This document shows positions 1,378 to 55,367 of a stretch of 64,000 nt of DNA, piece by piece (within the stretch, counting starts at the first letter, position 1; every line of letters begins with the position of its first letter). The translations under genes were made by a program, and so were the position numbers. The DNA is from Candidatus Cloacimonadota bacterium (GTDB lineage: Bacteria > Cloacimonadota > Cloacimonadia > JGIOTU-2). Location of the stretch: positions 170,466 to 234,465 of the forward strand of contig JBNGBT010000003.1 in NCBI GenBank assembly GCA_049903315.1, in the 5' to 3' direction. The notes below the pieces were generated by a model. It searched no databases. It was not told the DNA's origin and saw only the letters and a program-made list of their open reading frames with translations.

Positions 1378-5488
<4,111 letters not shown>

Positions 5489-5489
<1 letters not shown>

Positions 5490-6781: not shown

Positions 6782-6808
6782 ATTATATCCTCTCTATAAT
6801 TGCCTATT

Positions 6809-32612: not shown

Positions 32613-32636
32613 CAATATGCCCCTTGTATATAGGTG

Positions 32637-33898: not shown

Positions 33899-34540
33899 CT
33901 ACGGCTTAATAATACCCAGCCAATCTCCAAGCAGGAAATTCAACCTTCCGATAAGAAGCGAGATACGAGCCATCACCGTGTAACCGAATGCAGCACCGAA
34001 ACTTACCATAAGGAAATATATGCCGACCCGGGCAGTTACTCCGAAAGCTCCCTCATGTTTCTTGCTGAAGAAAAAGTACACAATGCCAGATATTGTGCCG
34101 ATTATGAGAATAAGTTCGCCAGCGATCTGAGCAGCATTACTTGTTGCAAAGGGATTCAGCATGGTCGCTGTTAATTGGTTAAGTACATCTGACTGAAGAT
34201 AACGCTTGAAGAACAATCCGGCAGTTGTTCCCACCACAACTGCAAGTGCGTACCTGCTTACCCAATCAATAGTAGGTATCAACCTGCAGAGCATCAGGAT
34301 ACCGAGGAATGCCGGTATCAGAAGGATGAAATTATGAGTAAAATCCGAAGTAACAGGGATAAAAAGATTCGGCATGAGTATGTTGTAGATTGTATATATG
34401 AACCAATAACCCGCAGAAATTCCGATGAAGATCTGCTCAGCTATTTTGTAAAAAGGATTGTCCTTATAAAGAAAGCTGAAGATAGCGAAAGTAAGAAAAG
34501 CCCCGACCCAAATCCCGATTCTATCCATAATTATTGCCAT
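33899..34540 (-). CDS. Uncharacterised multi-pass membrane protein (DUF6754-type operon)
   Basis: About 6 hydrophobic helices; SFLYKDNPFYKIAE and FGAAFGYTVMARISLL are motifs I associate with this conserved cluster. Confidence 0.7.
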   Translation of the reverse strand: MAIIMDRIGIWVGAFLTFAIFSFLYKDNPFYKIAEQIFIGISAGYWFIYTIYNILMPNLFIPVTSDFTHNFILLIPAFLGILMLCRLIPTIDWVSRYALAVVVGTTAGLFFKRYLQSDVLNQLTATMLNPFATSNAAQIAGELILIIGTISGIVYFFFSKKHEGAFGVTARVGIYFLMVSFGAAFGYTVMARISLLIGRLNFLLGDWLGIIKP

Positions 34541-34551
34541 TTTTCCTCCGC

Positions 34552-35394
34552 CTATGCTTTCAATGTGTCTTTTTGTTTCCTGGTTGCAAAATAGCCGATA
34601 TTGCCGATCAGGATGAACAGGATTATTACGAGATGTGCAACGGATTGGGCATCCATTCCTTTTGTTGCAAAACCAGGTTTATTGATGAGGAGTTCAAATT
34701 CCGCTGCGCCTTTCAATCCGCCAAGCAAACCGACAAGCTGCTGCTGTTCGTTCACATAGGGCAGCATCGTGGGCGCTTGTACTGCGGTTGTACCCCCAGC
34801 AACTGGTTTTCCAAATGTATCATGAACGATCATAACCCACTGTTTCAATCCCGGATCACCTGCAGATAATGAGATCATACAACCGATTTTATCGAAATTC
34901 TTTATGCCCTTCATGATGGGGAATTCGTCGATTGGATTTCCCCCTGCATCGGCAGGAAAGGTGCTTCGAAAATCCTTTGCCATATGATTGATCGTCACCA
35001 TACCGCCCGATTTATAACCGAGATTAATAAAGTCGATACCATATTCGATATTTGGGTATTCCGTACTCACTATTTCGTATGCTTCGTTGCACATCTGCAC
35101 GCCCATGGGCCAGAGTGCTGTTGCAATTATCCGCAATCTAAGTGTGAACGCCTGCTGCATCAAAGCAATTGCCATTGGTTGTATTTCCGGTTTGGTCGAA
35201 GGATCATAATCAAAAGAAATGAGAATGCGTGTACCGGGTTCCAATTCTTGAAGAAGATCATAGACACTCTGCACATTCTCGGTCACTTCCAGGTTGAATC
35301 CCAATGTCCATATTAGAGGAATTGCCACGCCGAGTAGGATGAGCAGGAAAATAATTCGACGATCAATATTAAGGAATCTCTCAAAAATTTTCAT
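34552..35394 (-). CDS. Uncharacterised membrane-anchored alpha/beta protein (DUF6754-type operon)
   Basis: N-terminal TM, soluble domain (SFDYDPS, YGIDFINLGY, GLLGGLKGAAEFE), C-terminal TM. Confidence 0.7.
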   Translation of the reverse strand: MKIFERFLNIDRRIIFLLILLGVAIPLIWTLGFNLEVTENVQSVYDLLQELEPGTRILISFDYDPSTKPEIQPMAIALMQQAFTLRLRIIATALWPMGVQMCNEAYEIVSTEYPNIEYGIDFINLGYKSGGMVTINHMAKDFRSTFPADAGGNPIDEFPIMKGIKNFDKIGCMISLSAGDPGLKQWVMIVHDTFGKPVAGGTTAVQAPTMLPYVNEQQQLVGLLGGLKGAAEFELLINKPGFATKGMDAQSVAHLVIILFILIGNIGYFATRKQKDTLKA

Positions 35395-35395
35395 C

Positions 35396-36091
35396 TTATT
35401 TACCCCCTAAATATGAACGTTCGATGCCAAGAATGATGCGCAGAGAGCTGCCGATCACACCCAAACCGGCGCAGATCATTATCGCTCGCTGACCCGCAGT
35501 ATTGGGATATTTCATAATGAAAGAGGCAATATTAGGCAAATGCAAAAATCCAAGTGAATCAGGGATCCATCCGGTCAAAGTGCTTCCGATCGTTGTTCTA
35601 CCAAGCATGACGAGAACTGCTGCGATAAGGAGTAAAGTAGATTCGGGACTGCGTGCACGAAATGCCCTGTACGATGCGGAAGCCATGAAGAATGCGAGCA
35701 GAGAGAACATCGTGGCAGAAAGGTTTTCAAATAAATATTTAAAGATGTAATCAAAGGGTTTATATCCTAGGAAATTGATCATTTTTTCACTTGCAGGAAT
35801 GAGTCCGGGCTGCTGCTGTGTTCCCCATAAAATACCACAAATGACCATGATGGAAAAACTCACAAGCGCAATAATGAAGTATGGCCAGTTCGGTGCTTTG
35901 CGGGATATTTTTATGATATTGACCTTGAACAAGCTGAGCTGCCCGAGGATGATAGCAAAACCGGAAATGATCAAAAACCATCCTTCGAGACTGGTCGAAA
36001 GACTATTAAAGGGTTTGTGTGGAATGAATTCAGAAACAATGATAAGCATGCCAACCAAGAAGGTGATGAGCATAGGAATTTGTCTTCTCAT
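35396..36091 (-). CDS. Uncharacterised multi-pass membrane protein (DUF6754-type operon)
   Basis: About 6 TMs; ATMFSLLAFFMASASYRAFRAR, PNTAGQRA, LRIILGIERSYLG. Confidence 0.7.
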   Translation of the reverse strand: MRRQIPMLITFLVGMLIIVSEFIPHKPFNSLSTSLEGWFLIISGFAIILGQLSLFKVNIIKISRKAPNWPYFIIALVSFSIMVICGILWGTQQQPGLIPASEKMINFLGYKPFDYIFKYLFENLSATMFSLLAFFMASASYRAFRARSPESTLLLIAAVLVMLGRTTIGSTLTGWIPDSLGFLHLPNIASFIMKYPNTAGQRAIMICAGLGVIGSSLRIILGIERSYLGGK

Positions 36092-39814: not shown

Positions 39815-42800
39815 ATGAAAAGTAAGGTAATTATATGCATTCTTTCTCTTGTTCTGCTAGGGATTTTCTATACTTTACAAGCTGATATTATTACTGTTAA
39901 TGCTAATGGCGGATATCAATATTTAACAATTCAAGATGGTATTGATGCCGCAAGTAATGGAGATACGGTATTAGTTTATTCTGGAACTTATATCGAAAAC
40001 ATTAATTTCTATGGCAAGGACATCATTGTAGCTTCCTTATACTTTAGCACTGGAGATGCCGGATACGTAGAGAACACAATTATTGATGGTGGCGGAAACG
40101 GCTTTGTAGTACATTTTGAGAATGGTGAAACCGAATCTGCTTTGCTTCAGGGTTTTACAATTACAAACGGATACGCTGAAGATGGTGGGGGTATTAAATG
40201 TAAAAATGCAAGCATGCCGGTTATTGATCATTTGATTATTACAGGTAATGCAGCTTTTGACGATGGCGGCGGTGTTGCGTGCTATACTAATTCAGCGATG
40301 AGAATTTCGAATTGTGTTTTTTTTGAAAATGTTGCTGACGATAATGGAGGTGGCATCTTTCTGAATCATTCTACAGGATTAATTGAAAACTGTCTGTTTT
40401 ACGAGAATATTTCTAACGGCGGAAGTTCTGCAATAGATTGTTGGTCGTCCGATCCAATGATAATTAATTGTTCTTTTTTTAATAATGTATCCTACGGATG
40501 GGCAACGATTGGTATATGGGACACCTCAAGTCCTTCTATATTAGATTGTATAGTATCAAATAATACTGGTTCGGGATTTGTGTTTCATTCTCAGTCAGAA
40601 GCGATAGTTGAATTTTGTAATTGTTATAACAATTCCTTTGGTTCCTTTTCTGGTTCTGTACCACCAGGTCTTGGAGTAATCAATCAAGTTAATGCAAACA
40701 ATGATCCATGTGACGAGTTTTATAATATTTTTATGGACCCGGAATTAATTGATCCTATAAATTCAGATTTTACGCTGTTCCCTTCATCACCCTGCATAGA
40801 CGCAGGTATTTCCGATACAATCGGGTTCAACCTTCCGCAATTCGATCTCGATGGTAATCCTCGTGTCGTTGATGGAAATGGTGATGGATTAGCAATTATT
40901 GATATGGGGTGTTATGAATTTGATGGAATGACCAATTATGTCTTTACTCGTATTACTAGTGGAGATATTGTTAATGATGCTGGCTATTCTCATGGGAGCA
41001 GCTGGATTGACTATGATAATGATAATGATCTCGATCTCTTTGTTGCTAACTGGAATGATCAGGATAACTTTCTCTACCAAAATGATGGAAATGGAACATT
41101 CACAAAAATCACAAATGGTGTCGTTGTAAACGATGGGGGTAAATCCTACGGATCAAGCTGGGGTGATTTTAATAATGATGGTCATATCGATGCTTTTGTA
41201 AGTAATATTTCAGATCAAGATAATTTTCTCTATCAAAATAATGGAGATGGAACATTTCTTAAGATTACTGAAGGTGATATTGTTAATGACGGCGGCAAAT
41301 CCAACAATTGCTGTTGGGGTGATTATAATAATGATGGATTTCTCGATCTGTTCATAGCTAACAGTGGCTCTCAAAATAATAGTTTGTATTGCAATTGTGG
41401 AGATGGTTCATTTTTGAAAATAACTAACGGTATATTAGTAAATGATGCAGGTCAATCAAAAGGTTGTTGTTGGGCGGATTATAACAATGATGGATACCTT
41501 GATTTGTTTGTTACAAATTCAGATAATCAAAATAACTATTTGTACTGTAATAACGGAAATGGCACTTTTACAAAAATAACAGATGGTCCTATCGTTAATG
41601 ACGGAGGTGATTCTCGGGGTGGTGGTAGCTGGGGAGATTATGATAACGATGGCGATCTTGACCTTTTTGTTTCGAACAGGTTGCAAAACAATTTCCTTTA
41701 TTGTAACGATGGAGATGGCACTTTTACTAAAATCACTGCAGGGGATATTGTAAATGATGGTGGAAATTCTCGAGGAAGCAGCTGGGCTGACTATAACAAC
41801 GACGGATATCTGGACCTGTTCGTATCCAATGACGGTGGAAATAACTTCTTATATAAAAACAATTGTGATGGCACTTTTACCAAAATCACTGATGAAGTTA
41901 TTACTAATAATGACGGCGTTTCTGTAGGATGTGTATGGGGAGATTATGATAATGACGGTGACCTAGACATATTCGTAAGTAATTTCTGGGATGATAATAA
42001 TTACTTATATAAGAATAACGGTAATGATAACAACTGGATAAATATCAAATGTGTTGGTACTATTTCAAATAAAGCTGCCATCGGCACAAAAGTAAAAGTG
42101 AAAACGATCCTGGATGGAAGCCCAATGTGGCAGGTGAGAGAAATTTCAGCATTGAATGGATACAGTAGCCAAAATAGTCTGAATGTCGAGTTCGGTTTAG
42201 AGAGCAGTACACTTATAGATTCGGTAATCGTAAGTTGGCCAAGTGGTACTGAACAAATCCTAACAAACACAGCGTCTAATCAGTTTATTACAATTACTGA
42301 GCCTTTTTCTTCTCCTGATCAAATTGCACTTCAAATTCCCACAGTAAATGCACTTCCCGGAGATACAGTTCTTATGCCTATGAATGTTCAATTTCCCCAA
42401 GATTCGACTTTCACGTCCGCAGAAATTCAAGTAGGTGGATATTTGGGATCATTAGAATTTGTTGAATTAATTGCTGATTGCAGCCTGGTTGGCGATGCCG
42501 GATGGTTGTATGAATCTAATGAAAACGACAGCGTAAACACAATATGGATGGCTGGATCTGAAGCCATATCCGGTGAAGGTACTCTAATCTGGATGAAATT
42601 TATAATACCGGAAACTGCAGCTGGTTTTATTCCAATCATACTTGTAGATGCGTTGTTTGATACGGGTGTGATACCTGTCAATGTAACTTCTGGTGGTGTA
42701 AATGTTGTCACACCATTGTATGGAGATGTAGATTTCAACGGATTGGTACAAGCCTATGATGCTTCTATGATCCTGAAATATCTTGCGGGCTATATTAATC

Positions 42801-43618
42801 TTGATGCTCTGCAACTTACAGTTGCTGATGTGAGTCTTGATTCAACAGTTTCTGCTCTTGATGCAACGCTGATTTTGCAGTATGGTGTTGGCATTATTGA
42901 TACTTTGCCCTATGAACCAGGTCCAGACTACATTGCAGATGGTGATATCTCAATGGAAGATGCAGCCTATACAGGAATTCCGGTTGAAATACCTCTATAT
43001 ATCACAAATTCGGAAAAGATTTATTCATTCGAAGGCTTGATCAATTTTGATTCTCAGCTTCTCACATTATTAAGCATTTCTTGGTCAGAATACTTAGATG
43101 GATGTAATATTCAATATAATGTAAATGAAGGAGAATGTAGGATCGTTGGGGCGGATATCGAACCATACAACCAGAACGGCATATTTGCAACGTTACGATT
43201 CTATGTTAATGAGGAATTTGCTCCAAGCGACTCCACAATTATCTATTTCGACAGGATGCGCTGGAATGAGAACGATGTAATGTATAATGTCGATCGTGCG
43301 AAGATTTTTAACAATTTTGGAATAAATGATCCTCATGAGTACGAATTCATACTTCATCAGAATAGTCCAAATCCCTTTACGCATACAACCAAAATTCAAT
43401 ATTCAATCCCATCGGAAAGCTCAGTCTCTCTCAAAATATACAATATAAAAGGTGAATTTGTTAAGGAACTTATCGATGATTATAAAGATAAAGGGACATA
43501 TGAAGTTGCCTGGGATGGGAGAGATAAATATGGAAATAAGGTTGTAAGTGGTGTATATTTCTATCAATTTATTAGTGGCGATACAAAAGTAATTAAAAGG
43601 ATGATACTACTTAACTAA
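39815..43618 (+). CDS. Large secreted modular protein: beta-helix, 7x FG-GAP-like repeats, ASPIC/UnbV, cohesin, dockerin, cohesin, FlgD-Ig/T9SS-type C-terminus
   Basis: GGAGG RBS, signal peptide, TIQDGID..GDTVLV..GTY.ENI, SPCIDAG, DxDNDGxLDL repeats, SSQNSLNVEFGL..VSWPSG, duplicated dockerin loops, QNSPNPF..WDGRD..SGVYFY. Confidence 0.85.
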   Translation: MKSKVIICILSLVLLGIFYTLQADIITVNANGGYQYLTIQDGIDAASNGDTVLVYSGTYIENINFYGKDIIVASLYFSTGDAGYVENTIIDGGGNGFVVHFENGETESALLQGFTITNGYAEDGGGIKCKNASMPVIDHLIITGNAAFDDGGGVACYTNSAMRISNCVFFENVADDNGGGIFLNHSTGLIENCLFYENISNGGSSAIDCWSSDPMIINCSFFNNVSYGWATIGIWDTSSPSILDCIVSNNTGSGFVFHSQSEAIVEFCNCYNNSFGSFSGSVPPGLGVINQVNANNDPCDEFYNIFMDPELIDPINSDFTLFPSSPCIDAGISDTIGFNLPQFDLDGNPRVVDGNGDGLAIIDMGCYEFDGMTNYVFTRITSGDIVNDAGYSHGSSWIDYDNDNDLDLFVANWNDQDNFLYQNDGNGTFTKITNGVVVNDGGKSYGSSWGDFNNDGHIDAFVSNISDQDNFLYQNNGDGTFLKITEGDIVNDGGKSNNCCWGDYNNDGFLDLFIANSGSQNNSLYCNCGDGSFLKITNGILVNDAGQSKGCCWADYNNDGYLDLFVTNSDNQNNYLYCNNGNGTFTKITDGPIVNDGGDSRGGGSWGDYDNDGDLDLFVSNRLQNNFLYCNDGDGTFTKITAGDIVNDGGNSRGSSWADYNNDGYLDLFVSNDGGNNFLYKNNCDGTFTKITDEVITNNDGVSVGCVWGDYDNDGDLDIFVSNFWDDNNYLYKNNGNDNNWINIKCVGTISNKAAIGTKVKVKTILDGSPMWQVREISALNGYSSQNSLNVEFGLESSTLIDSVIVSWPSGTEQILTNTASNQFITITEPFSSPDQIALQIPTVNALPGDTVLMPMNVQFPQDSTFTSAEIQVGGYLGSLEFVELIADCSLVGDAGWLYESNENDSVNTIWMAGSEAISGEGTLIWMKFIIPETAAGFIPIILVDALFDTGVIPVNVTSGGVNVVTPLYGDVDFNGLVQAYDASMILKYLAGYINLDALQLTVADVSLDSTVSALDATLILQYGVGIIDTLPYEPGPDYIADGDISMEDAAYTGIPVEIPLYITNSEKIYSFEGLINFDSQLLTLLSISWSEYLDGCNIQYNVNEGECRIVGADIEPYNQNGIFATLRFYVNEEFAPSDSTIIYFDRMRWNENDVMYNVDRAKIFNNFGINDPHEYEFILHQNSPNPFTHTTKIQYSIPSESSVSLKIYNIKGEFVKELIDDYKDKGTYEVAWDGRDKYGNKVVSGVYFYQFISGDTKVIKRMILLN
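40943..42022 (+). repeat. Seven tandem ~52-aa FG-GAP/VCBS-like coding repeats
   Basis: Consensus FTKITxGxIVNDGGxSxGxxWGDYxNDGxLDLFVxN...NNFLYxNxGDGT occurs seven times. Confidence 0.85.
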
Positions 43619-43644: not shown

Positions 43645-44439
43645 TCACATTTTAAAGATAGACTTCAGTTTATTTTTCAGTGAACCGGGTTTTTTTCTTT
43701 CGTCGAAATAACCTTCAAAATTATGAATGAGTACTTCGTTGTTTAAAATTCGTTTTGGATTTTCATAGAACAATATTTCAGCAAGGTCTTCAGAATAATT
43801 TGAGGCGACAAGATCATAGGTATCTTTCATTAGGATAGGGCGCTTTTTAAGACCGTGAACATCGGATGCAATAACATGAACGCAGCCTAGATTCAGCATT
43901 TCCAATGCGAGGTCTTTCACGGCATTTCCATAGACGCCCAAAATACTGCCGCTGTTCATCTGCACATATATTTCTCTATTTACTATTGTAAGCAGGTAAT
44001 CGATATTATTCATGAAGGGTGAAAATCTCTCTGCATGTGCAATAATTGGTCGAAATCCATTTTGCTGAAAATTAAAGAGGATTTCTTCAAAATTATCAGG
44101 AAACCTTTGCAGTGCGGTCTCAATAAGTACATAATTACTCTGTGCCAGAGTGAGATCTTCTTTTTTTACTTTGCTTACCAGATCAGGTTCACAATAGAGT
44201 TCTGCTCCGGAATGTAGAATCATATTTAGATTATGTTTTTGTATAAGCTCCCGAACCTCATTGACTTTTTCGGTAATAATCTTGTGAGAGTTTTCATACA
44301 CACCTGAAATAATGTGTGGAGTGGCGACAAGTTCTGTTACCCCCTGATCAATGAGCGCTTGTAATATCTCATAACTCTCTTGTAAATCCTGTGCGCCGTC
44401 ATCGATGCCGGGCAGTACATGAGTGTGAATATCTATCAT
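43645..44439 (-). CDS. CpsB/CapC-family PHP phosphatase
   Basis: MIDIHTHVLPGIDDGA, ATPH, IAHAER, IASDVH. Confidence 0.9.
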   Translation of the reverse strand: MIDIHTHVLPGIDDGAQDLQESYEILQALIDQGVTELVATPHIISGVYENSHKIITEKVNEVRELIQKHNLNMILHSGAELYCEPDLVSKVKKEDLTLAQSNYVLIETALQRFPDNFEEILFNFQQNGFRPIIAHAERFSPFMNNIDYLLTIVNREIYVQMNSGSILGVYGNAVKDLALEMLNLGCVHVIASDVHGLKKRPILMKDTYDLVASNYSEDLAEILFYENPKRILNNEVLIHNFEGYFDERKKPGSLKNKLKSIFKM

Positions 44440-44444
44440 CTCAA

Positions 44445-45191
44445 CTATAAGTGAATTGCTTCTGCAAAATCTTTGATAAGATTGGTCTGGTCATTCTTTT
44501 CTATAGCAGTTCCAATCACTATAAAATCAGCACCTGCGGATACTTTTTCTCTGGCTTCCTGAGGAGTTTTTATTCCACCGCCGATGATCATTGGTATAGA
44601 AATGTTCTCTTTGACTTTCTTTATCATATCTGAAGGCACAGATTGTTTTGCTCCGCTTCCTCCGTCAAAAAAAATAAGCTTCATACCAAGATATTGTGCA
44701 GCAAGTGCGTGTGATACTGCAATATCATATTTGGTCCTTGGTATTGGAAGGCTGCTGCTCATAAACTGAACTGAAGTGAGTGATCCGGATTCGATAAGGA
44801 AGTAACCAGTAGGAATAGCTTCCACATCATATTTTTTGATAAGAGGAGCTGTCCTAACTTGTTCACCAATAAGCAATTGAGGATTCCTGCTGCTCATCAT
44901 GCTGAGGAAAAGGATTGCATCTGCATAGGGTGAAACAAAATTGAAAATTCCCGGAAAAACGAGTACGGGTATTGTCACTTGTTCTTTTATGACCCTCACG
45001 GTTTCATTAAAATTATCTCTAACCATCAAGCTGCCACCGACCAAAATGACATCAACACCGCTGAGCTGACATTTTTCTGCAAGCTTTGCGGATTCCGAAG
45101 GTGCTTGTGTGTCAGGATCTATGAGACAAAAGAAACCCGCTTTTTTCTCATTTTTTAATGAATATAAAAATCGTAATATAGTATCTTTCAT
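44445..45191 (-). CDS. Geranylgeranylglyceryl phosphate (GGGP) synthase, group II-like
   Basis: LIDPD, ILVGGS, FPG, FLSMMSSRNP, PTGY, DGGSGA, GGGI, GADFIVIG. ATGA overlap with the upstream gene. Confidence 0.9.
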   Translation of the reverse strand: MKDTILRFLYSLKNEKKAGFFCLIDPDTQAPSESAKLAEKCQLSGVDVILVGGSLMVRDNFNETVRVIKEQVTIPVLVFPGIFNFVSPYADAILFLSMMSSRNPQLLIGEQVRTAPLIKKYDVEAIPTGYFLIESGSLTSVQFMSSSLPIPRTKYDIAVSHALAAQYLGMKLIFFDGGSGAKQSVPSDMIKKVKENISIPMIIGGGIKTPQEAREKVSAGADFIVIGTAIEKNDQTNLIKDFAEAIHL

Positions 45192-46024
45192 TGCGCCACC
45201 CATAAAATAACTAAAAATACAAGCATATGTATTTTCATAAAACTTTCTGAATATTTTGCCGTCTTTGTGATCGGTTTTATTAAAAGAATTATCAAGTTAA
45301 TAAAAAGTAATAATAGGATACCGATTAGTAATACAATAAAGAATGCTAACGAGTAAAATTCCGGATAACCCCAAATAATTGTTGCTGCGAATCCTATCCA
45401 GAACAAAAGTGCCAGGAGAAGGGTTTTTTTGTCACCCCACAAAATCGGCAGCGTTTTTGCTTCCGCAGATCTGTCGCCATTCTTATCTTCTATGTCTTTC
45501 ACAAGTTCTCTTATGATAGTATAAAAAAAAGCACAGAGTCCTACAAAAAAAGCATTTCTGAGATTACTTGTAATAAAGCTTCCAAAGATAAAGGTTGAAG
45601 CGGTCACGAAAGCGACAAGTAGATTTCCCAAGAAATGTATTCTTTTACTTTTCCATGCATATATAAAAAGCAGTAATGAATTAAATGCAGCAATTGCGAT
45701 CATCCAAGGATTGCGCAGAAATATACTGATAATTATTCCCAAGGCAAAAAGGCAGATCCCGTAATATTTTGCTTTTAATGGAGTGATCAGTCCAGAAGGC
45801 AAAACTCTTTCTTTACGATTGATCATATCGATCGAATAGTCATAGTAGTCATTGAGAACGTAACCTCCCCCTGAAATAATCGCTGCAGCAATGCCTGCGA
45901 GAAGGGGAAAAAGAAGCGGGAACACTGCTACTTTGTAGTATGCTCCGAAGAGAACTGCAATCAATACAAAGAAAAAATTCAGCGGTCTGAGAATACGAAT
46001 ATATGCGAAGAAGGTTTTTATCAC
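45188..46024 (-). CDS. DGGGP-synthase-like UbiA prenyltransferase
   Basis: RPLN, NDYYDYSIDMINRKERVLPSG, GNLLVA and RELVKDIEDKNGD..KTLP are typical of the DGGGPS subfamily. Adjacent to GGGPS. Confidence 0.85.
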   Translation of the reverse strand: MIKTFFAYIRILRPLNFFFVLIAVLFGAYYKVAVFPLLFPLLAGIAAAIISGGGYVLNDYYDYSIDMINRKERVLPSGLITPLKAKYYGICLFALGIIISIFLRNPWMIAIAAFNSLLLFIYAWKSKRIHFLGNLLVAFVTASTFIFGSFITSNLRNAFFVGLCAFFYTIIRELVKDIEDKNGDRSAEAKTLPILWGDKKTLLLALLFWIGFAATIIWGYPEFYSLAFFIVLLIGILLLLFINLIILLIKPITKTAKYSESFMKIHMLVFLVILWVAQ

Positions 46025-46935
46025 TAGGGAATTCTGTCATGAATGCGTTCTACAACATCTAGGAGAACGCTATTGTGTGGTATATATTTGATGATATTCT
46101 GTGCGTCTTGGATGAGTTTTTGAGCTTGTCGCTTTGATTCTTCTATGCCAAGAAGAGTAGGATAGGTGACTTTTTCATTGCGCTGATCTTCGCCGGATTC
46201 CTTGTCAAGTATGTCGTCTGCTCCAACCTCATCAAGGATATCATCTATAACCTGATAAGCAAGCCCGATATTCAACGCAAAGTCGCTCAATGCATTGGTG
46301 ATCTGCTCAGTAGCGCCTGCGAGAATGCATGCACAGCGCTCTGCAGAACGGAGAAGTGCCCCGGTTTTTTTGAGATGAATATCCCTCAAAATATGCAGTT
46401 TCACTCTTTTTTGCGAGGCTGTAATATCAACAACCTGTCCGCCGATCATGCCTCTAGTGGATGCTGCTTCGATGAGTTCTTCAAGGCACTGGATCGCTTT
46501 TTTGCTATTGCGCAGCTTGAGAACTGTCTCGAATCCTTTGGTCATAAGTGCATCACCAGCAAGGATAGCTATTGCATTGCCAAATTTCTTATGACAGCTT
46601 GCTTTTCCACGTCGCTCATCGGCATTATCAATAAAAGGGAGGTCATCATGTATCAAAGAGGCGGTATGCAGCATCTCGATTGCACAGGCGACAGGGAGTA
46701 CTGGCTGCACAGCTCTTTTATCGCGTTTGTTTGCAAGCATTTCATAGGTTGCCAACATCAATATAGGACGCAGACGTTTTCCTCCAGCCAATACGGAATA
46801 TCTCATCGCACGATGAATTATCTCGGGTTTTGTGCTGTCAGAATCGAGATATTTCGAAAGAGCTTTATTGATAAGCTCTCTTCTGCTTTCAAAATATTTA
46901 TCTAATATCAACAATCCTCCTAGGATCAATTTCAT
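46024..46935 (-). CDS. Short-chain polyprenyl diphosphate synthase (probably GGPP synthase)
   Basis: GGKRLRP, FARM HTASLIHDDLP..D....RRG, GQVVD, KTG, SARM DDILD. The true start may be a TTG just after the AGGAGG near 46915-46922. Confidence 0.88.
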   Translation of the reverse strand: MKLILGGLLILDKYFESRRELINKALSKYLDSDSTKPEIIHRAMRYSVLAGGKRLRPILMLATYEMLANKRDKRAVQPVLPVACAIEMLHTASLIHDDLPFIDNADERRGKASCHKKFGNAIAILAGDALMTKGFETVLKLRNSKKAIQCLEELIEAASTRGMIGGQVVDITASQKRVKLHILRDIHLKKTGALLRSAERCACILAGATEQITNALSDFALNIGLAYQVIDDILDEVGADDILDKESGEDQRNEKVTYPTLLGIEESKRQAQKLIQDAQNIIKYIPHNSVLLDVVERIHDRIP

Positions 46936-47025: not shown

Positions 47026-49407
47026 TTATAAAAGCGAAATGGGGTCAATGTCAATCTGCATTTTTATATAGTTTGGAATTTTCACGTTACCCCGGAACCA
47101 TTCAATAAAGTGGTTGATATTTGGTTGATGTTCAGCTTTTATTAATATATGATAACGGTATTGTTTCCTGATTTTGCTAATGGGGGCAGGTGTCGGGCTG
47201 AGTATAATAAGTTTATCTTTTTGAGGATACTGAGCGATCTTATATCTGATGCTGTCCATGAAAGCATGAAGCTGCTCTTCATTATTGAGCAGGAAAAGAA
47301 TCCGAACTAGTTTGGTGAATGGTGGATAATGAAGCTCCTGTCTGAGGTGAAGCTCGTGCTGATAAAAACCAAAAAAGTTCTGTTTTTGAGCATATTGAAT
47401 GCTGTAATGTTTCGGATTATAGGTTTGGACGATCACCTCACCTTCTTTTTCACTCCGTCCAGCGCGTCCGGCGACCTGAATAATATGCTGGAAATTTCGT
47501 TCTGATGCCCTGAAATCCGGCAGATTGAGATTTACATCTGCCGAGACTATTCCAACTAAAGTAATATTCGGGAAATCAAGTCCCTTGATAATCATTTGAG
47601 TGCCAAGTAAAATATCAATATATCCGTTGCGTACCTGGTCAAATACATTTTGGTAACTATTCTTTTTCGTTGTGGTGTCACTATCCATTCGAGCAATTCT
47701 TGCAGTGGGGAAAAGAAATTGAAGGTTCTGCTCGATCTTCTCGGTGCCCGGGGAACCAAAATTAAAAATGTACCCACCGCATTCAGGACACTTGCGAGGC
47801 ATGGAGCGTTCATATCCACAATAATGACACTTGATCTTTTTGTTTCGCGAATGATAGGTCATGCTGATGTTGCAATCTTTGCATTGAAGTACATGTCCGC
47901 ACTTTACACACTGCACGTATGAAGCGTATCCTCTCCTATTCTGAAAGAGAAGGATCTGTTCCTTCTTAAGGAGCCTGTCTTCGATCTTGTTCCTGAGAAG
48001 TTGTGAAAAAATCTTCGTATGATCTTCCTCTTCACGCATATCAACAACAATCAGCTTGGGCAGTATTTGATTTTTCACTCTTTTGGTCATTTTAAGAAGA
48101 GAATACTTCTCATGTTGAGTATTAAAATATGATTCAAGATAAGGAGTTGCAGTTCCTAAAAGCACCACCGCATTATTCGTTTTTGCTCTCAAAACTGCCA
48201 TGTCACGTGCATTATAGAGAGGTGGTCGTTCGTGCTGCTTGTAGGTATTTTCATGTTCTTCATCCACTATAATAAGTCCAAGATTTTCAAGCGGAGCAAA
48301 GAGCGCACTCCTTGGACCAATAGCTATCTTTTTTTCCCCCTTCTTCAATAAATTCCAATAGTGTAAACGCTCTCTGTCGCTAAGCTTGCTGTGTAGAACT
48401 GCAATGATATCACCGAAGTGAGAGTAAAATCTCTCAACTGTCTGGGGAGTTAAGGAAATTTCAGGAATAAGTATTATCGCAGTTTTGCCTTGAGAAAGGC
48501 TTTTTTTCATTGCTCGGATATAGACTTCGGTTTTTCCGCTTGAAGTGACGCCATGAAGAAGAAACGCATGAAAAGTGTGATCATCTATGTGAGTTTCGAG
48601 TTTCCCTAAAACCTCAGCTTGTTCTTCAGTAAGTACGAAGGTTAGAGGTTCATTCTGCACTATATCCGAGAAAATATCAGGATGAATTTCACGCTTATAG
48701 ATTTCAACAAGATTTTTCTCTTTTAATTTATTAATGATGCTGTAGGAAAATTCTTTTGAAATATCTGCCATGAAGATAGGCTCAGACTGGTTTTGGAGGA
48801 AATGGAGGAGCTCCTGTTGTTTGGGACTGAGCACTTCATCAGAGGAATCTGCTATAAGTTTGATGCAGTTCACGGTTTTCTTCTGTACTTTTCTCTTATA
48901 GTGACGTTCGATATCGATGAATCCCTGTTCCTCCATGTCGAGAAGGTTTTTGTAAAGGCGAGAAATTTTAGACTTTTTCAAGTCTTCAATCGAACAGGAG
49001 TTTCCATTTTTTTCTATAAATTTAATTACCTTTAGGAAATCTTTATCCTTGGTTTCGGACTTTTTCAGCGTAATTTTCTGTATTGTATTTACGTTGATAC
49101 CGGCCGGCAGCATTGCTTTGAAAACGAGTCCAATAGGGCAGTGGTAATATTTTGAAATCCATTTGGCGAAGGTCAGAAGCTCTTTATTGATAAGTGGTTT
49201 CTCATCGATAATTTCATGAATTTCTTTTATTTTATCTTCATCATATGCAGGTTTTTCTGTAAGTCCTATAATAATCCCTGTCTGGATACGGTAATTGAAA
49301 CCCACGATCACTCTTTGCCCGATTTTGGGAGAAATACTCTTGGGACAAGAATAGGTGAATGTGTCCTTGATATTAATCGGCAACGCAACTTCGATAAAGA
49401 TTTTCAT
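47026..49407 (-). CDS. priA: Primosomal protein N' (replication restart helicase)
   Basis: GVTSSGKTEVY, PEISLTPQ, DEEH, NRRGY, four CxxC motifs, QVAGRAGR. Confidence 0.96.
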   Translation of the reverse strand: MKIFIEVALPINIKDTFTYSCPKSISPKIGQRVIVGFNYRIQTGIIIGLTEKPAYDEDKIKEIHEIIDEKPLINKELLTFAKWISKYYHCPIGLVFKAMLPAGINVNTIQKITLKKSETKDKDFLKVIKFIEKNGNSCSIEDLKKSKISRLYKNLLDMEEQGFIDIERHYKRKVQKKTVNCIKLIADSSDEVLSPKQQELLHFLQNQSEPIFMADISKEFSYSIINKLKEKNLVEIYKREIHPDIFSDIVQNEPLTFVLTEEQAEVLGKLETHIDDHTFHAFLLHGVTSSGKTEVYIRAMKKSLSQGKTAIILIPEISLTPQTVERFYSHFGDIIAVLHSKLSDRERLHYWNLLKKGEKKIAIGPRSALFAPLENLGLIIVDEEHENTYKQHERPPLYNARDMAVLRAKTNNAVVLLGTATPYLESYFNTQHEKYSLLKMTKRVKNQILPKLIVVDMREEEDHTKIFSQLLRNKIEDRLLKKEQILLFQNRRGYASYVQCVKCGHVLQCKDCNISMTYHSRNKKIKCHYCGYERSMPRKCPECGGYIFNFGSPGTEKIEQNLQFLFPTARIARMDSDTTTKKNSYQNVFDQVRNGYIDILLGTQMIIKGLDFPNITLVGIVSADVNLNLPDFRASERNFQHIIQVAGRAGRSEKEGEVIVQTYNPKHYSIQYAQKQNFFGFYQHELHLRQELHYPPFTKLVRILFLLNNEEQLHAFMDSIRYKIAQYPQKDKLIILSPTPAPISKIRKQYRYHILIKAEHQPNINHFIEWFRGNVKIPNYIKMQIDIDPISLL

Positions 49408-49814: not shown

Positions 49815-51149
49815 TCACTGCAGCTCATTTTCGTCGAAGTAAGGTCCTAAATAATCTTTCCAGTCCGGAACAGTAAACTCGAAATCATCGTTATCCACAT
49901 ACACAAGCTTATAATTTCCCATCTTTGTGAAATCCACAAATACATAGATACGCTTTCCACCAATATAATATTTCCATATGATGTACGGTTTTGCATCGTA
50001 TTCATAACTCTTATCAATCACTTCTTCCGGTTTGCCTTGACGAATGTAAATTCTACCTCTGTCAGATTTCCAGCCATCTCCGTAATGAGAAAAATTCCTG
50101 TTCGTATAGTTCACCCGGCGAATGATCTCTTCTTTATATTCATTCTGTTCTGTCTTTGGATTTGGATCGTTCTGCTCCCAAAAACGCTTCAGAAATTCAG
50201 CGCGTCCTTCATCATCAAGATTCTCATATACACTCTCTTCATAGTTTGTCAGAAAATATTTGGCATACCGGTACTCTTTATCGATTTCCGCCTGCGAAAT
50301 AGCTTGCTGGCTCTCTTGAATGAAAATTAAATCTTCCCGAGATGCAATTGGTTCATCAGGATTATCTTTGGAATAAAGGTTGAGGGTGAGAAGATATGTA
50401 CCGGTTTCCCATTGTGAAATAGGTATCCATTTCCAGAATGGTTTTGTCTTCAACGTTGATGAGAACTTCTTCTCTTCATTATACACGGAGTTTTGATCTT
50501 TGTTCTCAATGCTTAAAACCCATGTCCCTTCCAGGGGATTCTCGAAGGTTGAAACGTTTTGAAAAACTTCAAAATAATAAGTAAAGCCCTCATCCTTCTC
50601 AAGTTCGAAAAGATGATTTGGGTTTACAAGGAAGAGGATATTATTTCGTTTGAAGTCCTGAAATTCTGCTGTTGAATCACTTTGATGAAAAGAGCTTATC
50701 TCAATATCACTGAGATTCATATGAGTGTAATCGAGAGTATTATATGTTTTTTCCCAGGTGATGCTCTCTGAGTTCACACGATCCTGGATGTTAATTGAAA
50801 ACTTATATAACCCCGGTGTTACAGTAGCTTTCATTTTATCAATAAAAAACTCATCGTGATAAATGGAGGTTTTATCAAGATCAACCTTGATTTGCCTGAT
50901 AAAATCTTTGTTATACAGTTCCTGTCCTTGCGCATTATAGATATTAAAATTTACATGCAATTGTGCCATAAGGATATTGTCCTGTGCAGTAAAATCAAGG
51001 TCAGAATCAAAAACTTTGTAGGTTATCTCGAAGGTTGTATTTCCATTTTCTGCAGGAAAACGGTTACAGTCAAAATACACATTCAATTCCGCAATGAGAA
51101 ATATTGGGATGAACACAAGTAGAAGTGTAAATAATAATTTATTTTTCAT
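49815..51149 (-). CDS. GWxTD-domain exported protein
   Basis: Signal peptide; FWEQNDPNP..NEYKEE..RRVNY and GWKSDRGRIYIRQGKP. Confidence 0.85.
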   Translation of the reverse strand: MKNKLLFTLLLVFIPIFLIAELNVYFDCNRFPAENGNTTFEITYKVFDSDLDFTAQDNILMAQLHVNFNIYNAQGQELYNKDFIRQIKVDLDKTSIYHDEFFIDKMKATVTPGLYKFSINIQDRVNSESITWEKTYNTLDYTHMNLSDIEISSFHQSDSTAEFQDFKRNNILFLVNPNHLFELEKDEGFTYYFEVFQNVSTFENPLEGTWVLSIENKDQNSVYNEEKKFSSTLKTKPFWKWIPISQWETGTYLLTLNLYSKDNPDEPIASREDLIFIQESQQAISQAEIDKEYRYAKYFLTNYEESVYENLDDEGRAEFLKRFWEQNDPNPKTEQNEYKEEIIRRVNYTNRNFSHYGDGWKSDRGRIYIRQGKPEEVIDKSYEYDAKPYIIWKYYIGGKRIYVFVDFTKMGNYKLVYVDNDDFEFTVPDWKDYLGPYFDENELQ

Positions 51150-54100
51150 TGAAGTCCACCTTCATATTTTCTATGAAATGTCCATTATTTTGTAAATATC
51201 TGTAAAGATTTTTATGTGGAAATATTTTATACCGCTGCGATTCGATCCTGAGTGTACCGAAAAGTTTTGTGCGGACATTGAACACGACCCTGAAATTACC
51301 GGGATGGGTGAGTATCTGTTCTTCAATAAAATGGTTCAAATCCTTCTCAGAGTATTGCGTTTCATCTATTTCAAAAGATATGTTGCCGGAAATGTCTTTT
51401 TGCCAGTTTTCTTCGAGAATGATCTGATCAGCAACGATTGAAAGATGATCCTTGTTTTCTCTGAGCTTTGATGAAAGTTTGCCAATGACATAAATAATAT
51501 CTTTTTCTTTTATCAAGTCACCGAACTTTGTATACTCATTAGAGAAAAGCACCACTTCAAATTTATCATGCAGGTCTTCACAGGACACAAAGGCCATGGT
51601 TCTTTTCTTTTTATCTTTAATCAATTTCACTTCGTCCACTATACCGATCATCCTAACATCCTGGTTGCGTAGTTCATCACGCTTGCCGTTTTTCATACAT
51701 TTCTTATACTGCAGAGTATTTAGATTTGTAAGTGTTTTAATATCTTTCTCATAAGAAGTGAGGGGATGACCGGAAATGTAAAAACCCAGAAGTTCTTTTT
51801 CCATATCAAGACGCCTGCCGAATTCCCATTCTTTTTTATCAGGAAGGGGAGGGTAGAGATCCTGATCATTTGCCTGCAGAGATGCAAAAAGAGAAGATTG
51901 TCCTTTCTGGCGTTCCCGCAGTTTTTGAGAGCCGAATTCGAGTGCGGTTTCTACTACTGCATAAAGTTGAGTTCTCGTGCCGTCAAGATCATCAAGTGCT
52001 CCTGCTCCTATAAGACTCTCCAGCGCAGTTTTATTGAGTTGATTTGCATCTACTTTTTCGCACAACTCAAAAATATTTTTAAAGATAGGATGATTTTTTC
52101 GAGCCTCAATAATTGCACGGATTGCATTTTCTCCCAAACTCTTTATCGCTTTCAGTCCGAAAATAATTTTCCCGTCTCTGACCGTGAAATTGTAATCGCT
52201 GAAATTCACATTCGGATGAAGCACTTCTATGTTCATCTTATGGCATACTTCTATGTTCCGGGCTATCTTTGCAGCATCATTTTCTACAGTCATCAACGCA
52301 GCCATGAATTCTGCAGTGTAGTGGCATTTCAGGTATGCGGTCTGGTATGCAATCATGCTATATGCTACACTGTGAGATTTGTTAAATCCATACCTGCCGA
52401 ATGTTTCAATACGCTCAAATATCTGGATAGCTTTTTCCCTGGATATACCTTTTTTTACAGCCCCTTCGATGAAAATAGGGCGGTATTTATCCATGAGCGA
52501 TTTGTCTTTTTTGCCCATGGCTTTTCGCAGGATATCAGCTTCACTCAAAGAAAATCCTGCCAAGACATTCACGATTTGTATTACCTGCTCCTGAAAGACG
52601 ATCACCCCGTATGTTGAGCGCAGAATATCTTCAAGCATTGGGTCGAGATAATCGACCTTTTCCTCATTGTTTTTTCTGCGTATATAGACTTCGTGCATAC
52701 CGCTGTCGAGCGTACCAGGACGGTATAAAGCATTGCAGATGGCAAGGTCTTCGATAGAACTCGGCTTTATGCGTTTGAGTATTCCTCTCATTCCTGAACT
52801 TTCAAATTGGAAGACACCATCTGTTTCTGCTGTATGGAAGAGCTTGTAGGTCTCTGTGTCATGCAGGTTTATCTCGTCAATGTTGAGCTCAATGCCATGA
52901 TGCTTCTTGATAAGCTGAAGCGCTTTTTCTATGATGGTCAGGTTTTTTAATCCGAGACAATCGATTTTCAATAAACCAAGTTTTTCAAGGCATTTTCCGT
53001 CATACTGAGTAATGATGGTTTTGTCTTTCGGGCTAATTGCAAGGGGAATATGGTTGGTGAGAGTATCCGGTGCGATCACTACACCTGCTGCATGCACACC
53101 CAGATGCCTGGGCAATCCCTCAAGAGTTTTGGAATATTCCCAAAGTTCTTTATATTCATCTTTACTATTTATCAACTCACGTAACTTTTCATTTTGATCA
53201 TAAGAACTTTCAAGGTATACATCGGGACCTGTTGGGATCATTTTTGCAATTGCATCAACTTCATAGAGAGGAATGCTCATAGTCCGACCAACATCTCTGA
53301 CAACCATCTTTGCTCCAAGACTTCCAAGGGTACCGATCTGGCTGATATTATCCTGTCCATATTTTTTCAGGATATATTCGAGCACTTTTGGGCGTGTTTC
53401 ATTGGAAAAATCCGTATCGATATCAGGCATACTCACTCGTGCTGGATTGAGAAATCGTTCAAAGAAAAGATTGTACCTGATTGGATCGATCTTGGTAATG
53501 TCAATGAGGTATGCGACTATACTTCCGGCGGCAGAACCTCTTCCTGGGCCGACAGTGACTTCCATTTCCCGTGCGGCTTTAATAATATCCCACACAATAA
53601 GAAAATAGCTCCCGAATCCCATTTTTTTTATAACTGCAAGCTCATGCTCGATTCGATCTTTTATTTCATCAGTCAACTCATCATATTTTTTTTCAACTCC
53701 CTCATATACAAGCTTTCTTAAATATTCATATTCATCAGAATATCCTTCCGGAATCGTGAAGTTCGGAAAGAGGAAACCCTCATAATCCAGTTCGAGATTG
53801 CATTTATCTGCTACTTTCAGTGTGTTCTCAATTGCTTCGGGAATATCACTAAAAAGACTCTTCATTTCATTTGGACTGCGGAAGTATATCTGATCCGTAG
53901 TAAATTTCATCCGGTTGTCATCTTCCAGGATTTTTCCTGTTTGAATACACAGCAGTACATCCTGAGCTTTTGCATCGATTTTTTTTATAAAATGACAATC
54001 ATTTGTTGCCACAAGCGGAGCACCGGTTTCTTTTGAAAGTTTCCTAAGTTTTTTAATCAGGTCTTCCTCTTTATCAAGCCCAAGCCGCATAATCTCAAGG

Positions 54101-54609
54101 TAGAAATTTTCCTTTCCGAATATCTTCTGATATTTTTCTACAACAGACACTGCTTTATCGTATTTGTTTTGAAGGATCATCTGGGATACCTCACCCTGCA
54201 TGCAGCCGCTAAGCCCGAGAAGTCCTTCAGAATATTTTGTAAGCAGTTTTTTATCAATTCTCGGTCTGTAGTAATGCCCCTGTATGAAGGCAATACTGGA
54301 AAGTTTCATGAGATTGTGATACCCGATTTGATCTTTCGCAAGCAAGGTGATGTGATGACGGCTTTGCTGTTTATCCTTTTCAGATAAAATGCTTCCGTTT
54401 ATAATGTATCCTTCCATCCCAATAATGGGTTTGATGTGATGAGCTTTCGCTGTTTTGTAAAAATCGATCGCACCAAACATATTGCCATGGTCCGTCATGG
54501 CGAGTGCAGGCATTTGCCACTCGGAAGCCAGCTTCATCAGGTCGGTGATTCGGCTTGCACCATCTAAGAGACTGTACTGAGTGTGGTTGTGAAGATGGAC
54601 AAAGGACAC
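51139..54609 (-). CDS. dnaE: DNA polymerase III subunit alpha
   Basis: FVHLHNHTQYSLLDG, GPGRGSAAGS, SMPDIDTD, HAAGVVI, YGFNKSH; GTG start with AAGGAG RBS. Confidence 0.98.
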   Translation of the reverse strand: MSFVHLHNHTQYSLLDGASRITDLMKLASEWQMPALAMTDHGNMFGAIDFYKTAKAHHIKPIIGMEGYIINGSILSEKDKQQSRHHITLLAKDQIGYHNLMKLSSIAFIQGHYYRPRIDKKLLTKYSEGLLGLSGCMQGEVSQMILQNKYDKAVSVVEKYQKIFGKENFYLEIMRLGLDKEEDLIKKLRKLSKETGAPLVATNDCHFIKKIDAKAQDVLLCIQTGKILEDDNRMKFTTDQIYFRSPNEMKSLFSDIPEAIENTLKVADKCNLELDYEGFLFPNFTIPEGYSDEYEYLRKLVYEGVEKKYDELTDEIKDRIEHELAVIKKMGFGSYFLIVWDIIKAAREMEVTVGPGRGSAAGSIVAYLIDITKIDPIRYNLFFERFLNPARVSMPDIDTDFSNETRPKVLEYILKKYGQDNISQIGTLGSLGAKMVVRDVGRTMSIPLYEVDAIAKMIPTGPDVYLESSYDQNEKLRELINSKDEYKELWEYSKTLEGLPRHLGVHAAGVVIAPDTLTNHIPLAISPKDKTIITQYDGKCLEKLGLLKIDCLGLKNLTIIEKALQLIKKHHGIELNIDEINLHDTETYKLFHTAETDGVFQFESSGMRGILKRIKPSSIEDLAICNALYRPGTLDSGMHEVYIRRKNNEEKVDYLDPMLEDILRSTYGVIVFQEQVIQIVNVLAGFSLSEADILRKAMGKKDKSLMDKYRPIFIEGAVKKGISREKAIQIFERIETFGRYGFNKSHSVAYSMIAYQTAYLKCHYTAEFMAALMTVENDAAKIARNIEVCHKMNIEVLHPNVNFSDYNFTVRDGKIIFGLKAIKSLGENAIRAIIEARKNHPIFKNIFELCEKVDANQLNKTALESLIGAGALDDLDGTRTQLYAVVETALEFGSQKLRERQKGQSSLFASLQANDQDLYPPLPDKKEWEFGRRLDMEKELLGFYISGHPLTSYEKDIKTLTNLNTLQYKKCMKNGKRDELRNQDVRMIGIVDEVKLIKDKKKRTMAFVSCEDLHDKFEVVLFSNEYTKFGDLIKEKDIIYVIGKLSSKLRENKDHLSIVADQIILEENWQKDISGNISFEIDETQYSEKDLNHFIEEQILTHPGNFRVVFNVRTKLFGTLRIESQRYKIFPHKNLYRYLQNNGHFIENMKVDFNEK

Positions 54610-54706: not shown

Positions 54707-54991
54707 TTAGTTTAATTTTTCGTACACACTCACCTGACGGGTTCGTTTTCTTGTCGTGCGGAAACCTGTAAATCGATAGGGCTCGAATTTCACAAAACCA
54801 TCTATAAGTGCATATATTGTAAAATCGTTCCCAAGACCTACATTTTTACCAGGATGTATCTTTGTGCCTTTTTGACGAACGATGATATTTCCCTTTTCGA
54901 CAAATTGTCCGGCATATTTCTTCACACCAAGATATTTTGGATTACTATCTCTTCCGTTTTGAGTGCTGCCTACACCTTTTTTATGTGCCAT
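54707..54991 (-). CDS. rpmA: 50S ribosomal protein L27
   Basis: [35 protein letters not shown]. Confidence 0.98.
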
Positions 54992-54999
54992 GATATCCT

Positions 55000-55317
55000 C
55001 TAATTAATAATTATATCTTTAATCTTTATTTCCGTAAAATCCTGACGATGTCCTTGTTTTCGACTGTAACTTTTACGTTTCTTTTTCTTGAAAACAATAA
55101 TCTTTCTGTCTTTTCCATGACCAAGTACTTCAGCGATCACTTTGGCTCCTTTTACAGAAGGTTTGCCAATATGTGTCTTGTTGTCATCATCGAGAAGTAA
55201 AAGGGAATCGATCTCAATTTCCGAGCCGATCTCTTTGTCTTCAAGATATGCAACATGAAGGACATCATCTTTTTGAACTTTTTGCTGCTGCCCTTTAAAA
55301 TCTATTATTGCGTACAT
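55000..55317 (-). CDS. rplU: 50S ribosomal protein L21
   Basis: [30 protein letters not shown]; AAGGAG RBS before ATG 55317. Confidence 0.97.
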
Positions 55318-55367
55318 CTCTAACTCCTTATAATTAGGAACTGCAAACTTCCAATGCACTTTTTGTG

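Follow-up and report, generated by a model that had tools for sequence, protein, structure and literature searches.

An archaeal-like ether-lipid gene cluster in a Candidatus Cloacimonadota genome and its relation to the published NIOZ-UU3 cluster

Why should a bacterium carry genes resembling both enzymes that form the ether bonds of archaeal lipids, and what would these genes do in it? The question was raised by a 64,000-nt stretch of contig JBNGBT010000003.1 from a Candidatus Cloacimonadota bacterium (assembly GCA_049903315.1), the whole of which is referred to below as the window. In it, genes for a short-chain polyprenyl diphosphate synthase (IDS), a UbiA-superfamily prenyltransferase resembling digeranylgeranylglyceryl phosphate synthase (DGGGPS) and a geranylgeranylglyceryl phosphate synthase (GGGPS) follow one another directly. 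Because it is orthologous to and syntenic with the tested cluster of the metagenome-assembled genome (MAG) NIOZ-UU3 (Villanueva et al., ISME J 2021; PMC7852524), the cluster is a Cloacimonadota copy of a published, biochemically tested cluster and as such already known; very probably it acts as that archaeal-like ether-lipid gene cluster through the pathway steps set out below.

Related loci were collected by a protein search with the window's GGGPS, which returned 22 loci, and the window proteins were compared with these by tblastn. Nine of the loci belong to Cloacimonadota (GGGPS identity 70-96%), including a Ca. Celaenobacter antarcticus MAG (L014, 90%) and MAG NIOZ-UU3 (L017, 88%); beyond the phylum, the GGGPS of a Bacteroidales MAG (L022) was 50% identical and those of two Thermoplasmata MAGs 46% and 42%. 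NIOZ-UU3 and the window share the gene order GWxTD-YraN-PriA-IDS-UbiA-GGGPS-PHP with the same overlapping starts, and their cluster proteins are 82-90% identical (Table 1). The first-pass annotation of this DNA had correctly pointed to a report of such co-located genes by Villanueva et al. The window genome is a different species-level genome of the same genus, with no difference in kind. The run IDS-UbiA-GGGPS-PHP is kept in all nine named Cloacimonadota loci, with PriA directly upstream in seven (L013 starts within the IDS gene, and PriA gave no match in L021).

For NIOZ-UU3, which comes from the Black Sea, the scaffold with the GGGPS, DGGGPS, polyprenyl synthase and PriA genes was reported to have been PCR-verified and resequenced, and transcripts of the cluster genes were detected in the Black Sea (PMC7852524). 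The purified GGGPS formed geranylgeranylglyceryl phosphate (GGGP) in vitro with glycerol-1-phosphate (G1P) and also with glycerol-3-phosphate (G3P), and co-expression of GGGPS and DGGGPS in E. coli gave phosphatidylglycerol archaeol (PG-archaeol) via the host CdsA and PgsA. The main text of the same report describes a genome without CarS or egsA/araM and with geranylgeranyl reductases, two polyprenyl synthases, the methylerythritol phosphate (MEP) pathway and a bacterial G3P/acyl pathway, puts forward the mixed archaeal/bacterial membrane as a hypothesis, and states that within bacteria the co-localisation of GGGPS and DGGGPS seems confined to Cloacimonetes (PMC7852524).

The three genes had been described in the first pass as coupled through TAGTG and ATGA overlaps, and both junctions were read in the sequence. 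At the IDS/UbiA junction (TAGTG) the IDS stop codon TAG and the UbiA start codon GTG have their G in common, a 1-nt overlap; at the UbiA/GGGPS junction (ATGA) the UbiA stop codon TGA overlaps an in-frame GGGPS ATG at 45191 by 4 nt. The longest GGGPS open reading frame (ORF) begins 12 nt upstream of this ATG, at 45203, which gives a 16-nt overlap with the UbiA gene. These overlaps of start and stop codons suggest that IDS, UbiA and GGGPS are translated as one unit. The gene for a PHP-family phosphoesterase follows GGGPS at a distance of 5 nt as a fourth gene in the same direction, and is probably translated in the same unit.

The arrangement was followed through a phylum sample of 201 genomes, and neighbours were counted at the 30 best GGGPS loci, among them that of the window. 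A GGGPS gene turned up in 93 of the 201 genomes, and by family in 14/14 (f1), 3/3 (f7), 52/52 (f8), 8/8 (f11) and 7/8 (f4); none was found in f5 (0/6), f6 (0/88), f9 (0/2) or f10 (0/11), together 107 genomes of the sample. UbiA adjoins GGGPS at 29 of the 30 loci (the exception is L066), and IDS is adjacent at 28 (the exceptions are L066 and L053, which is short), so the arrangement is no chance juxtaposition. The cluster is conserved across at least six families of the phylum.

Profile searches bore out the GGGPS identity given in the first pass. Both GGGPS models were passed (TIGR01769, 213.2 bits against a cut-off of 161.55; NF003198, 291 against 247), as was Pfam PcrB (143 against 23.9); the heptaprenylglyceryl phosphate synthase (HepGPS) model NF003197 was not reached (32.8 against 260). 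Solved GGGPS chains matched the protein with E values of 3e-53 to 3e-47, the best being 4mm1 (3.3e-53, residues 12-246), and HepGPS/PcrB chains matched at about 1e-8. By profiles and by solved structures, the protein is closer to C20 GGGPS than to C35 HepGPS/PcrB. By analogy with the 88.1%-identical NIOZ-UU3 enzyme, it would be expected to convert geranylgeranyl diphosphate (GGPP) and G1P to GGGP. Two other bacterial settings invite comparison. PcrB (HepGPS) of Bacillales, which occurs with YvoF, is likewise a PcrB-family enzyme of bacteria and forms an ether bond with glycerol phosphate, but the window protein is far closer to GGGPS by the NF003197 score just given; the Bacillus route is described as adding one C35 chain, with no DGGGPS (PMC9179154). 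The stand-alone GGGPS of Bacteroidota is a related enzyme in a bacterium belonging to the FCB (Fibrobacteres-Chlorobi-Bacteroidetes) group, as in the Bacteroidales locus L022, but the short contig of that locus yielded no match for UbiA, IDS or PHP.

The UbiA protein matched Pfam UbiA with 134 bits (cut-off 34.2). Its best NCBIfam models were of DGGGPS type (NF009523, 185.7 bits; NF009521, 179.9; NF009522, 145.7), and the best of these led the models for ChlG (69.9), EboC (59.3), heme o synthase (CyoE, 40.9) and 4-hydroxybenzoate octaprenyltransferase (UbiA, 38.8) by more than 100 bits. The best solved relative was the DGGGP synthase 6m31 (E = 1.4e-29, residues 4-273), with which both Asp-rich motifs, NDxxDxxxD and DxxDxxxD, align; the next was a chlorophyll synthase (2.7e-8). 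Outside the phylum, a word-limited protein search matched archaeal UbiA/DGGGPS proteins (Methanobrevibacter, Methanothrix) at 38-41% identity. The genome search found no UbiA-family gene besides that of the cluster, so there is no quinone or heme prenyltransferase paralogue to be mistaken for it. From profile scores together with orthology to the tested enzyme, the protein is assigned as an orthologue of the Cloacimonadota DGGGP synthase. The two ether-bond enzymes thus belong to the same families as archaeal GGGPS and DGGGPS (4mm1, 6m31), with the Asp-rich motifs conserved in the cluster UbiA. The window differs from archaeal systems in its bacterial host, in that neither G1P dehydrogenase nor CarS was found with the genes, and in that the genes stand in an operon-like unit with a bacterial-type IDS, which has a two-residue insertion in its first aspartate-rich motif (FARM).

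The polyprenyl synthase identity claimed for the first gene was likewise upheld (Pfam polyprenyl_synt, 198.7 bits; NCBIfam FPPsyn subfamily, 305.1 against a cut-off of 275). Its ORF from 46935 to 46024 encodes 303 aa, or 295 aa from the TTG at 46911. The TTG is probably the true start rather than the ATG at 46935, because the aligned TTG opens the orthologous ORFs of L017 and L021 and because AGGAGG lies 4 nt upstream of it. The protein has the FARM DDLPFID and the second aspartate-rich motif (SARM) DDILD. The genome contains two short-chain IDS paralogues with 41% mutual identity, and similarity to solved structures in the PDB did not separate farnesyl diphosphate (FPP) from GGPP synthases for either. 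The residue five positions before the FARM is Ala in the cluster IDS and Tyr in the paralogue; it is Ala in all 15 Cloacimonadota IDS orthologues whose region was read and Met in the solved GGPP synthases among the alignments listed. Under the chain-length rule established for such synthases, elongation ends at C15 when this residue is aromatic. Since the cluster protein has Ala and the paralogue Tyr at the position to which this rule applies, the cluster IDS probably makes GGPP and the paralogue is likely to be the housekeeping FPP synthase.

Other lipid genes were sought in the host genome (2.96 Mb, 71 contigs, 96.4% complete). CdsA (206 bits), four matches to CDP-alcohol phosphatidyltransferases (CDP-OH_P_transf), GpsA (154.9 bits) and IspH (292.5 bits) were found, with three PlsY-family G3P acyltransferase genes (C55:38258-38860, 179 bits; C9:17772-18275, 102.8 bits; C71:26518-27072, 76.7 bits). 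The statement of the first-pass annotation that the window holds no gene for G1P dehydrogenase, CarS or geranylgeranyl reductase (GGR) is accurate for the window; its extension to the genome stood for the first two and failed for the third, as a GGR-family gene is present on another contig (C44:100218-101414; TIGR02032, 222-223 bits against 158.8; GGR_cat, 95.8). The best equivalog for this gene was the digeranylgeranylglycerophospholipid reductase model (277 bits against a cut-off of 780), and it adjoins thiamine genes. About 4 kb from it, and adjoining a GT2 glycosyltransferase gene, lies a gene for a 219-aa protein (C44:95332-95991; L040:7333-7992), at most a possible CarS substitute; it gave the genome a weak second match to the cytidylyltransferase family CTP_transf_1 (PF01148, 25 bits) and matched nothing in NCBIfam. 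Genome-wide, this inventory is like that reported for NIOZ-UU3: G1P dehydrogenase and CarS not found, but a GGR, two polyprenyl synthases and a bacterial G3P/acyl pathway encoded (PMC7852524).

From these genes the following pathway is proposed. The cluster IDS would extend isopentenyl and dimethylallyl diphosphate derived from the MEP pathway to GGPP, as its small chain-length residue suggests. GGGPS would ether-link the first C20 chain to glycerol phosphate, as was shown for the 88%-identical NIOZ-UU3 enzyme, and the UbiA-family DGGGPS would add the second chain to give DGGGP, a step that co-expression in E. coli demonstrated for the 82%-identical orthologue. CdsA and the CDP-alcohol phosphatidyltransferases may then activate DGGGP and add head groups, which the E. 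coli enzymes do; the CdsA route is presumed because CarS was not found. Saturation of the chains could fall to the GGR-family reductase, whose gene lies elsewhere in the genome. Since the normal bacterial G3P/acyl pathway is present, any ether lipids would share a mixed membrane with ester lipids.

Several results weigh against this pathway. G1P dehydrogenase was not found in the 96.4% complete genome, where NF002022 reached at best 31.7 bits (cut-off 413); of the two Fe-ADH_2 matches above the Pfam cut-off, one is AroB (TIGR01357, 331.5 against 305) and the other an alcohol dehydrogenase of a phosphonate cluster. CarS (PF01864) had 0 matches genome-wide. The cluster IDS is below the CrtE (GGPP synthase) equivalog cut-off (284.5 against 460), so its C20 product rests on the chain-length rule, and between FPPsyn and CrtE the sole model that it passes is the subfamily named for FPP synthase. 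The UbiA protein falls under all DGGGPS equivalog cut-offs (NF009523, 269; NF009521, 296; NF009522, 353); these models all represent archaeal proteins. Promoter-like and terminator-like sites between 43400 and 47200 (11 and 3, against 12.7 and 3.0 in shuffles) showed no excess over shuffled sequence in a scan that did not cover FCB-type promoters. No RNA-library contig in two libraries bridges a gene junction by at least 31 nt. PMC7852524 calls for cultivation, and later literature, PMC11868695 included, continues to regard Cloacimonadota ether lipids as a genomic potential that awaits it; PMC11868695 also reports no Tes homologues in the phylum.

Public sequencing runs add the following on transcription. 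The full searched stretch was matched in DNA runs only (13 runs from 4 seawater or marine metagenome studies, possibly including the source). Two metatranscriptome libraries shared 5% of its words, and their contigs are 85-99% alike to it (threshold at least 85%), so that these RNA contigs come from relatives. They lie over parts of all four genes in X19 and of three, with none in UbiA, in X20, a coverage that was read without a silent control stretch; it demonstrates neither transcription nor an operon transcript.

At the far end of the cluster, the PHP gene adjoins GGGPS at 28 of the 30 best loci; at L058 the sequence ends 31 nt after GGGPS and at L062 the PHP gene is on another contig. The adjacency was also seen by coordinates in families f4, f7, f11, f12, f13 and f15. 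Next to the GGGPS genes of the Bacteroidales locus and of the two Thermoplasmata loci, no PHP match was found. The gene is present in 190 of the 201 genomes, including those of families with no GGGPS (f6, 84/88; f9, 2/2; f10, 11/11). Five genomes (three from f6, one each from f9 and f10) were picked from the 108 without a GGGPS match, and in each of them an IDS orthologue is followed 1-81 nt downstream by the PHP gene. UbiA-GGGPS is a two-gene cassette inside a phylum-wide IDS-PHP pair, since IDS and PHP stay adjacent in these five genomes that lack GGGPS; either the cassette is ancestral and its loss was clean, or it was inserted. At the chain-length position, a small residue (Ala or Gly) is retained by the IDS orthologues of the genomes without GGGPS. 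In the three from f6 (L072, L075 and L076; genomes G003, G007 and G012), which stand next to the PHP gene and are 37-42% identical to the window IDS, the SARM IDDILD is replaced by IEDIEAD, IDDISAD or IEDIIED, and this degenerate motif hints at a changed IDS function after loss of the cassette.

The alternative that survives best is that isoprenoid glycerol ethers are made as minor, specialised or conditional lipids and not as bulk membrane phospholipids, for which the heptaprenylglyceryl phosphate (HepGP)/YvoF route of Bacillus, with its dephosphorylation and later modification of the product, gives an example. Several of the observations above suit it: CarS and G1P dehydrogenase were not found, a phosphoesterase gene follows GGGPS at 28 of 30 loci, and the trait is dispensable, because four families show no GGGPS in 107 genomes. 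Bacillales and Halobacteria are moreover reported to dephosphorylate and acetylate (di)ether glycerol phosphates (PMC9179154). This alternative is nonetheless unlikely, as the orthologues gave complete PG-archaeol in E. coli with the host CdsA and PgsA (PMC7852524), the genome has its own CdsA, four CDP-alcohol transferases and a GGR of the kind typical of membrane-lipid saturation, the PHP gene stands beside IDS also where GGGPS is missing, and the window genome encodes a bacterial tyrosine kinase (BY-kinase) as well.

The PHP protein itself was considered as an ether-lipid enzyme, and this candidate was mostly rejected on its presence in 190 of 201 genomes, its retention in GGGPS-less ones, and the BY-kinase encoded elsewhere in the genome (TIGR01007, 189.9 bits against 108). 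A BY-kinase is the usual partner of CpsB-type phosphatases. Given its place beside IDS in genomes that lack GGGPS, and the BY-kinase, the presence of the PHP gene needs no ether-lipid role. That it acts on isoprenoid products, dephosphorylating GGGP, DGGGP or a polyprenyl diphosphate and so yielding non-phosphorylated diether core lipids or controlling GGPP flux, seems quite improbable; if true, the cluster would not be a simple copy of the archaeal phospholipid route.

It is more improbable still, to the point of being hardly credible, that the UbiA protein is a quinone, heme or other-acceptor prenyltransferase that leaves GGGPS to act alone as in Bacteroidota. UbiA-family functions are hard to infer from sequence, and the scores below the DGGGPS equivalog cut-offs would be in keeping with another acceptor. 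By profile scores and solved relatives, no placement with quinone or heme prenyltransferases was found, and the DGGGPS assignment of the first pass withstood this comparison: DGGGPS-type models gave 180-186 bits against 40.9 for heme o synthase and 38.8 for UbiA, and the best solved relative was a DGGGP synthase (1.4e-29, the next being 2.7e-8). Both the 82%-identical orthologue and GGGPS were needed for the diether in E. coli (PMC7852524), and in the window the gene overlaps the IDS stop with its start and the GGGPS start with its stop, with UbiA adjoining GGGPS at 29 of 30 loci.

That the cluster arose as an artefact of assembly or binning, or came very recently from an archaeon by transfer, is effectively refuted: although among the searches made its nearest relatives outside the phylum were archaeal (UbiA 38-41%, Thermoplasmata GGGPS 42-46%), the genes are internal to a 313-kb contig and flanked by priA and further bacterial genes, the cluster region's G+C content (0.377-0.415) is within the range of the whole window (0.309-0.436), genomes assembled independently from many families show the arrangement again, the published scaffold was PCR-verified and resequenced (PMC7852524), and one seawater DNA run, possibly the source, has the whole of the searched stretch in one 37-kb contig.

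With the archaeal-like ether-lipid pathway as the preferred reading, the locus belongs to a wider discussion, as bacteria with both archaeal ether-bond enzymes bear on the "lipid divide" and on the natural stability of mixed membranes; this significance belongs to the published work. The window contributes a further genome of this lineage in which the cluster recurs together with its gaps, in that G1P dehydrogenase and CarS were not found. Presence and absence of the cassette within the IDS-PHP pair offer a clean comparative system for timing the gain or loss of the trait, and the Ala/Tyr contrast of the IDS paralogues, a likely division of labour, is, like the lack of any second UbiA-family gene, a small addition that may be of use later. 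The PHP gene and the chain-length residue have no mention in the main text of PMC7852524, and its supplements may cover them; the cassette and IDS-paralogue observations are modest additions that may already stand in those supplements.

Table 1. Coordinates of the cluster genes, their neighbours and the IDS paralogue, with identity of the encoded proteins to those of NIOZ-UU3 (L017). Positions are those of the window unless a contig is named.
Feature	Position	Strand	Basis or remark	Identity to NIOZ-UU3
Short-chain polyprenyl diphosphate synthase (IDS)	46935/46911..46024	-	Pfam/NCBIfam and orthologue in NIOZ-UU3	90.4%
UbiA-superfamily prenyltransferase, DGGGPS-like	46024..45188	-	278 aa, GTG start	81.7%
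GGGPS, PcrB family	45203/45191..44445	-	252 aa from 45203	88.1%
CpsB/CapC-like PHP-family phosphoesterase	44439..43645	-	Pfam CpsB_CapC, 201.2 bits	83.3%
PriA primosomal helicase	47026..49407	-	Directly upstream of IDS gene; Pfam PriA_3primeBD, PriA_C, DEAD, Zn_ribbon_PriA	85.2%
YraN				83.3%
GWxTD				82.9%
DnaE	51139-54609		Bacterial neighbour	
L27 (rpmA)	54707-54991		Bacterial neighbour	
L21 (rplU)	55000-55359		Bacterial neighbour	
Second IDS	C71:105631-106329		Adjoins dut and thiamine diphosphokinase gene	

The bacterial setting described in the first pass (priA, dnaE, rplU) was recovered in full, with Pfam matches to PriA, DnaE, L27 and L21, and RNase G is among the further bacterial neighbours. 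Apart from the cluster, the window encodes a DhaK-type dihydroxyacetone kinase subunit (31602-32615, minus strand; Dak1, 385.8 bits), which has no established link to G1P; the product of dihydroxyacetone kinase, dihydroxyacetone phosphate, is the precursor of both glycerol phosphate enantiomers. Elsewhere in the genome, at C44:15853-19125 (L003), a phosphonopyruvate decarboxylase gene (TIGR03297, 373.8 bits) is followed by one for an iron-containing alcohol dehydrogenase, which suggests a phosphonate pathway of the 2-hydroxyethylphosphonate type.

For ORFs of 213, 280, 231 and 877 aa at 33899-36091 and 15356-17989 of the window, Pfam gave nothing at an E value of 1e-5 or better; genes for a MoxR-type AAA ATPase and a DUF6754 protein flank three of them. 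At 39815-43618 on the plus strand, a 1267-aa secreted protein is encoded with a beta-helix, FG-GAP/VCBS-like repeats, ASPIC/UnbV, dockerin and cohesin domains and a C-terminal FlgD-Ig-like domain. This protein varies widely among relatives (56-85% identity), and cohesin-dockerin scaffoldin-like proteins have been discussed for this phylum (PMC8542988). Genes for a monomeric isocitrate dehydrogenase, two ATP-citrate lyase subunits and aconitase stand in a row at 1378-8770 on the minus strand, a gene set of the reverse tricarboxylic acid cycle, and the same cluster has been described for Ca. Celaenobacter (PMC8542988).

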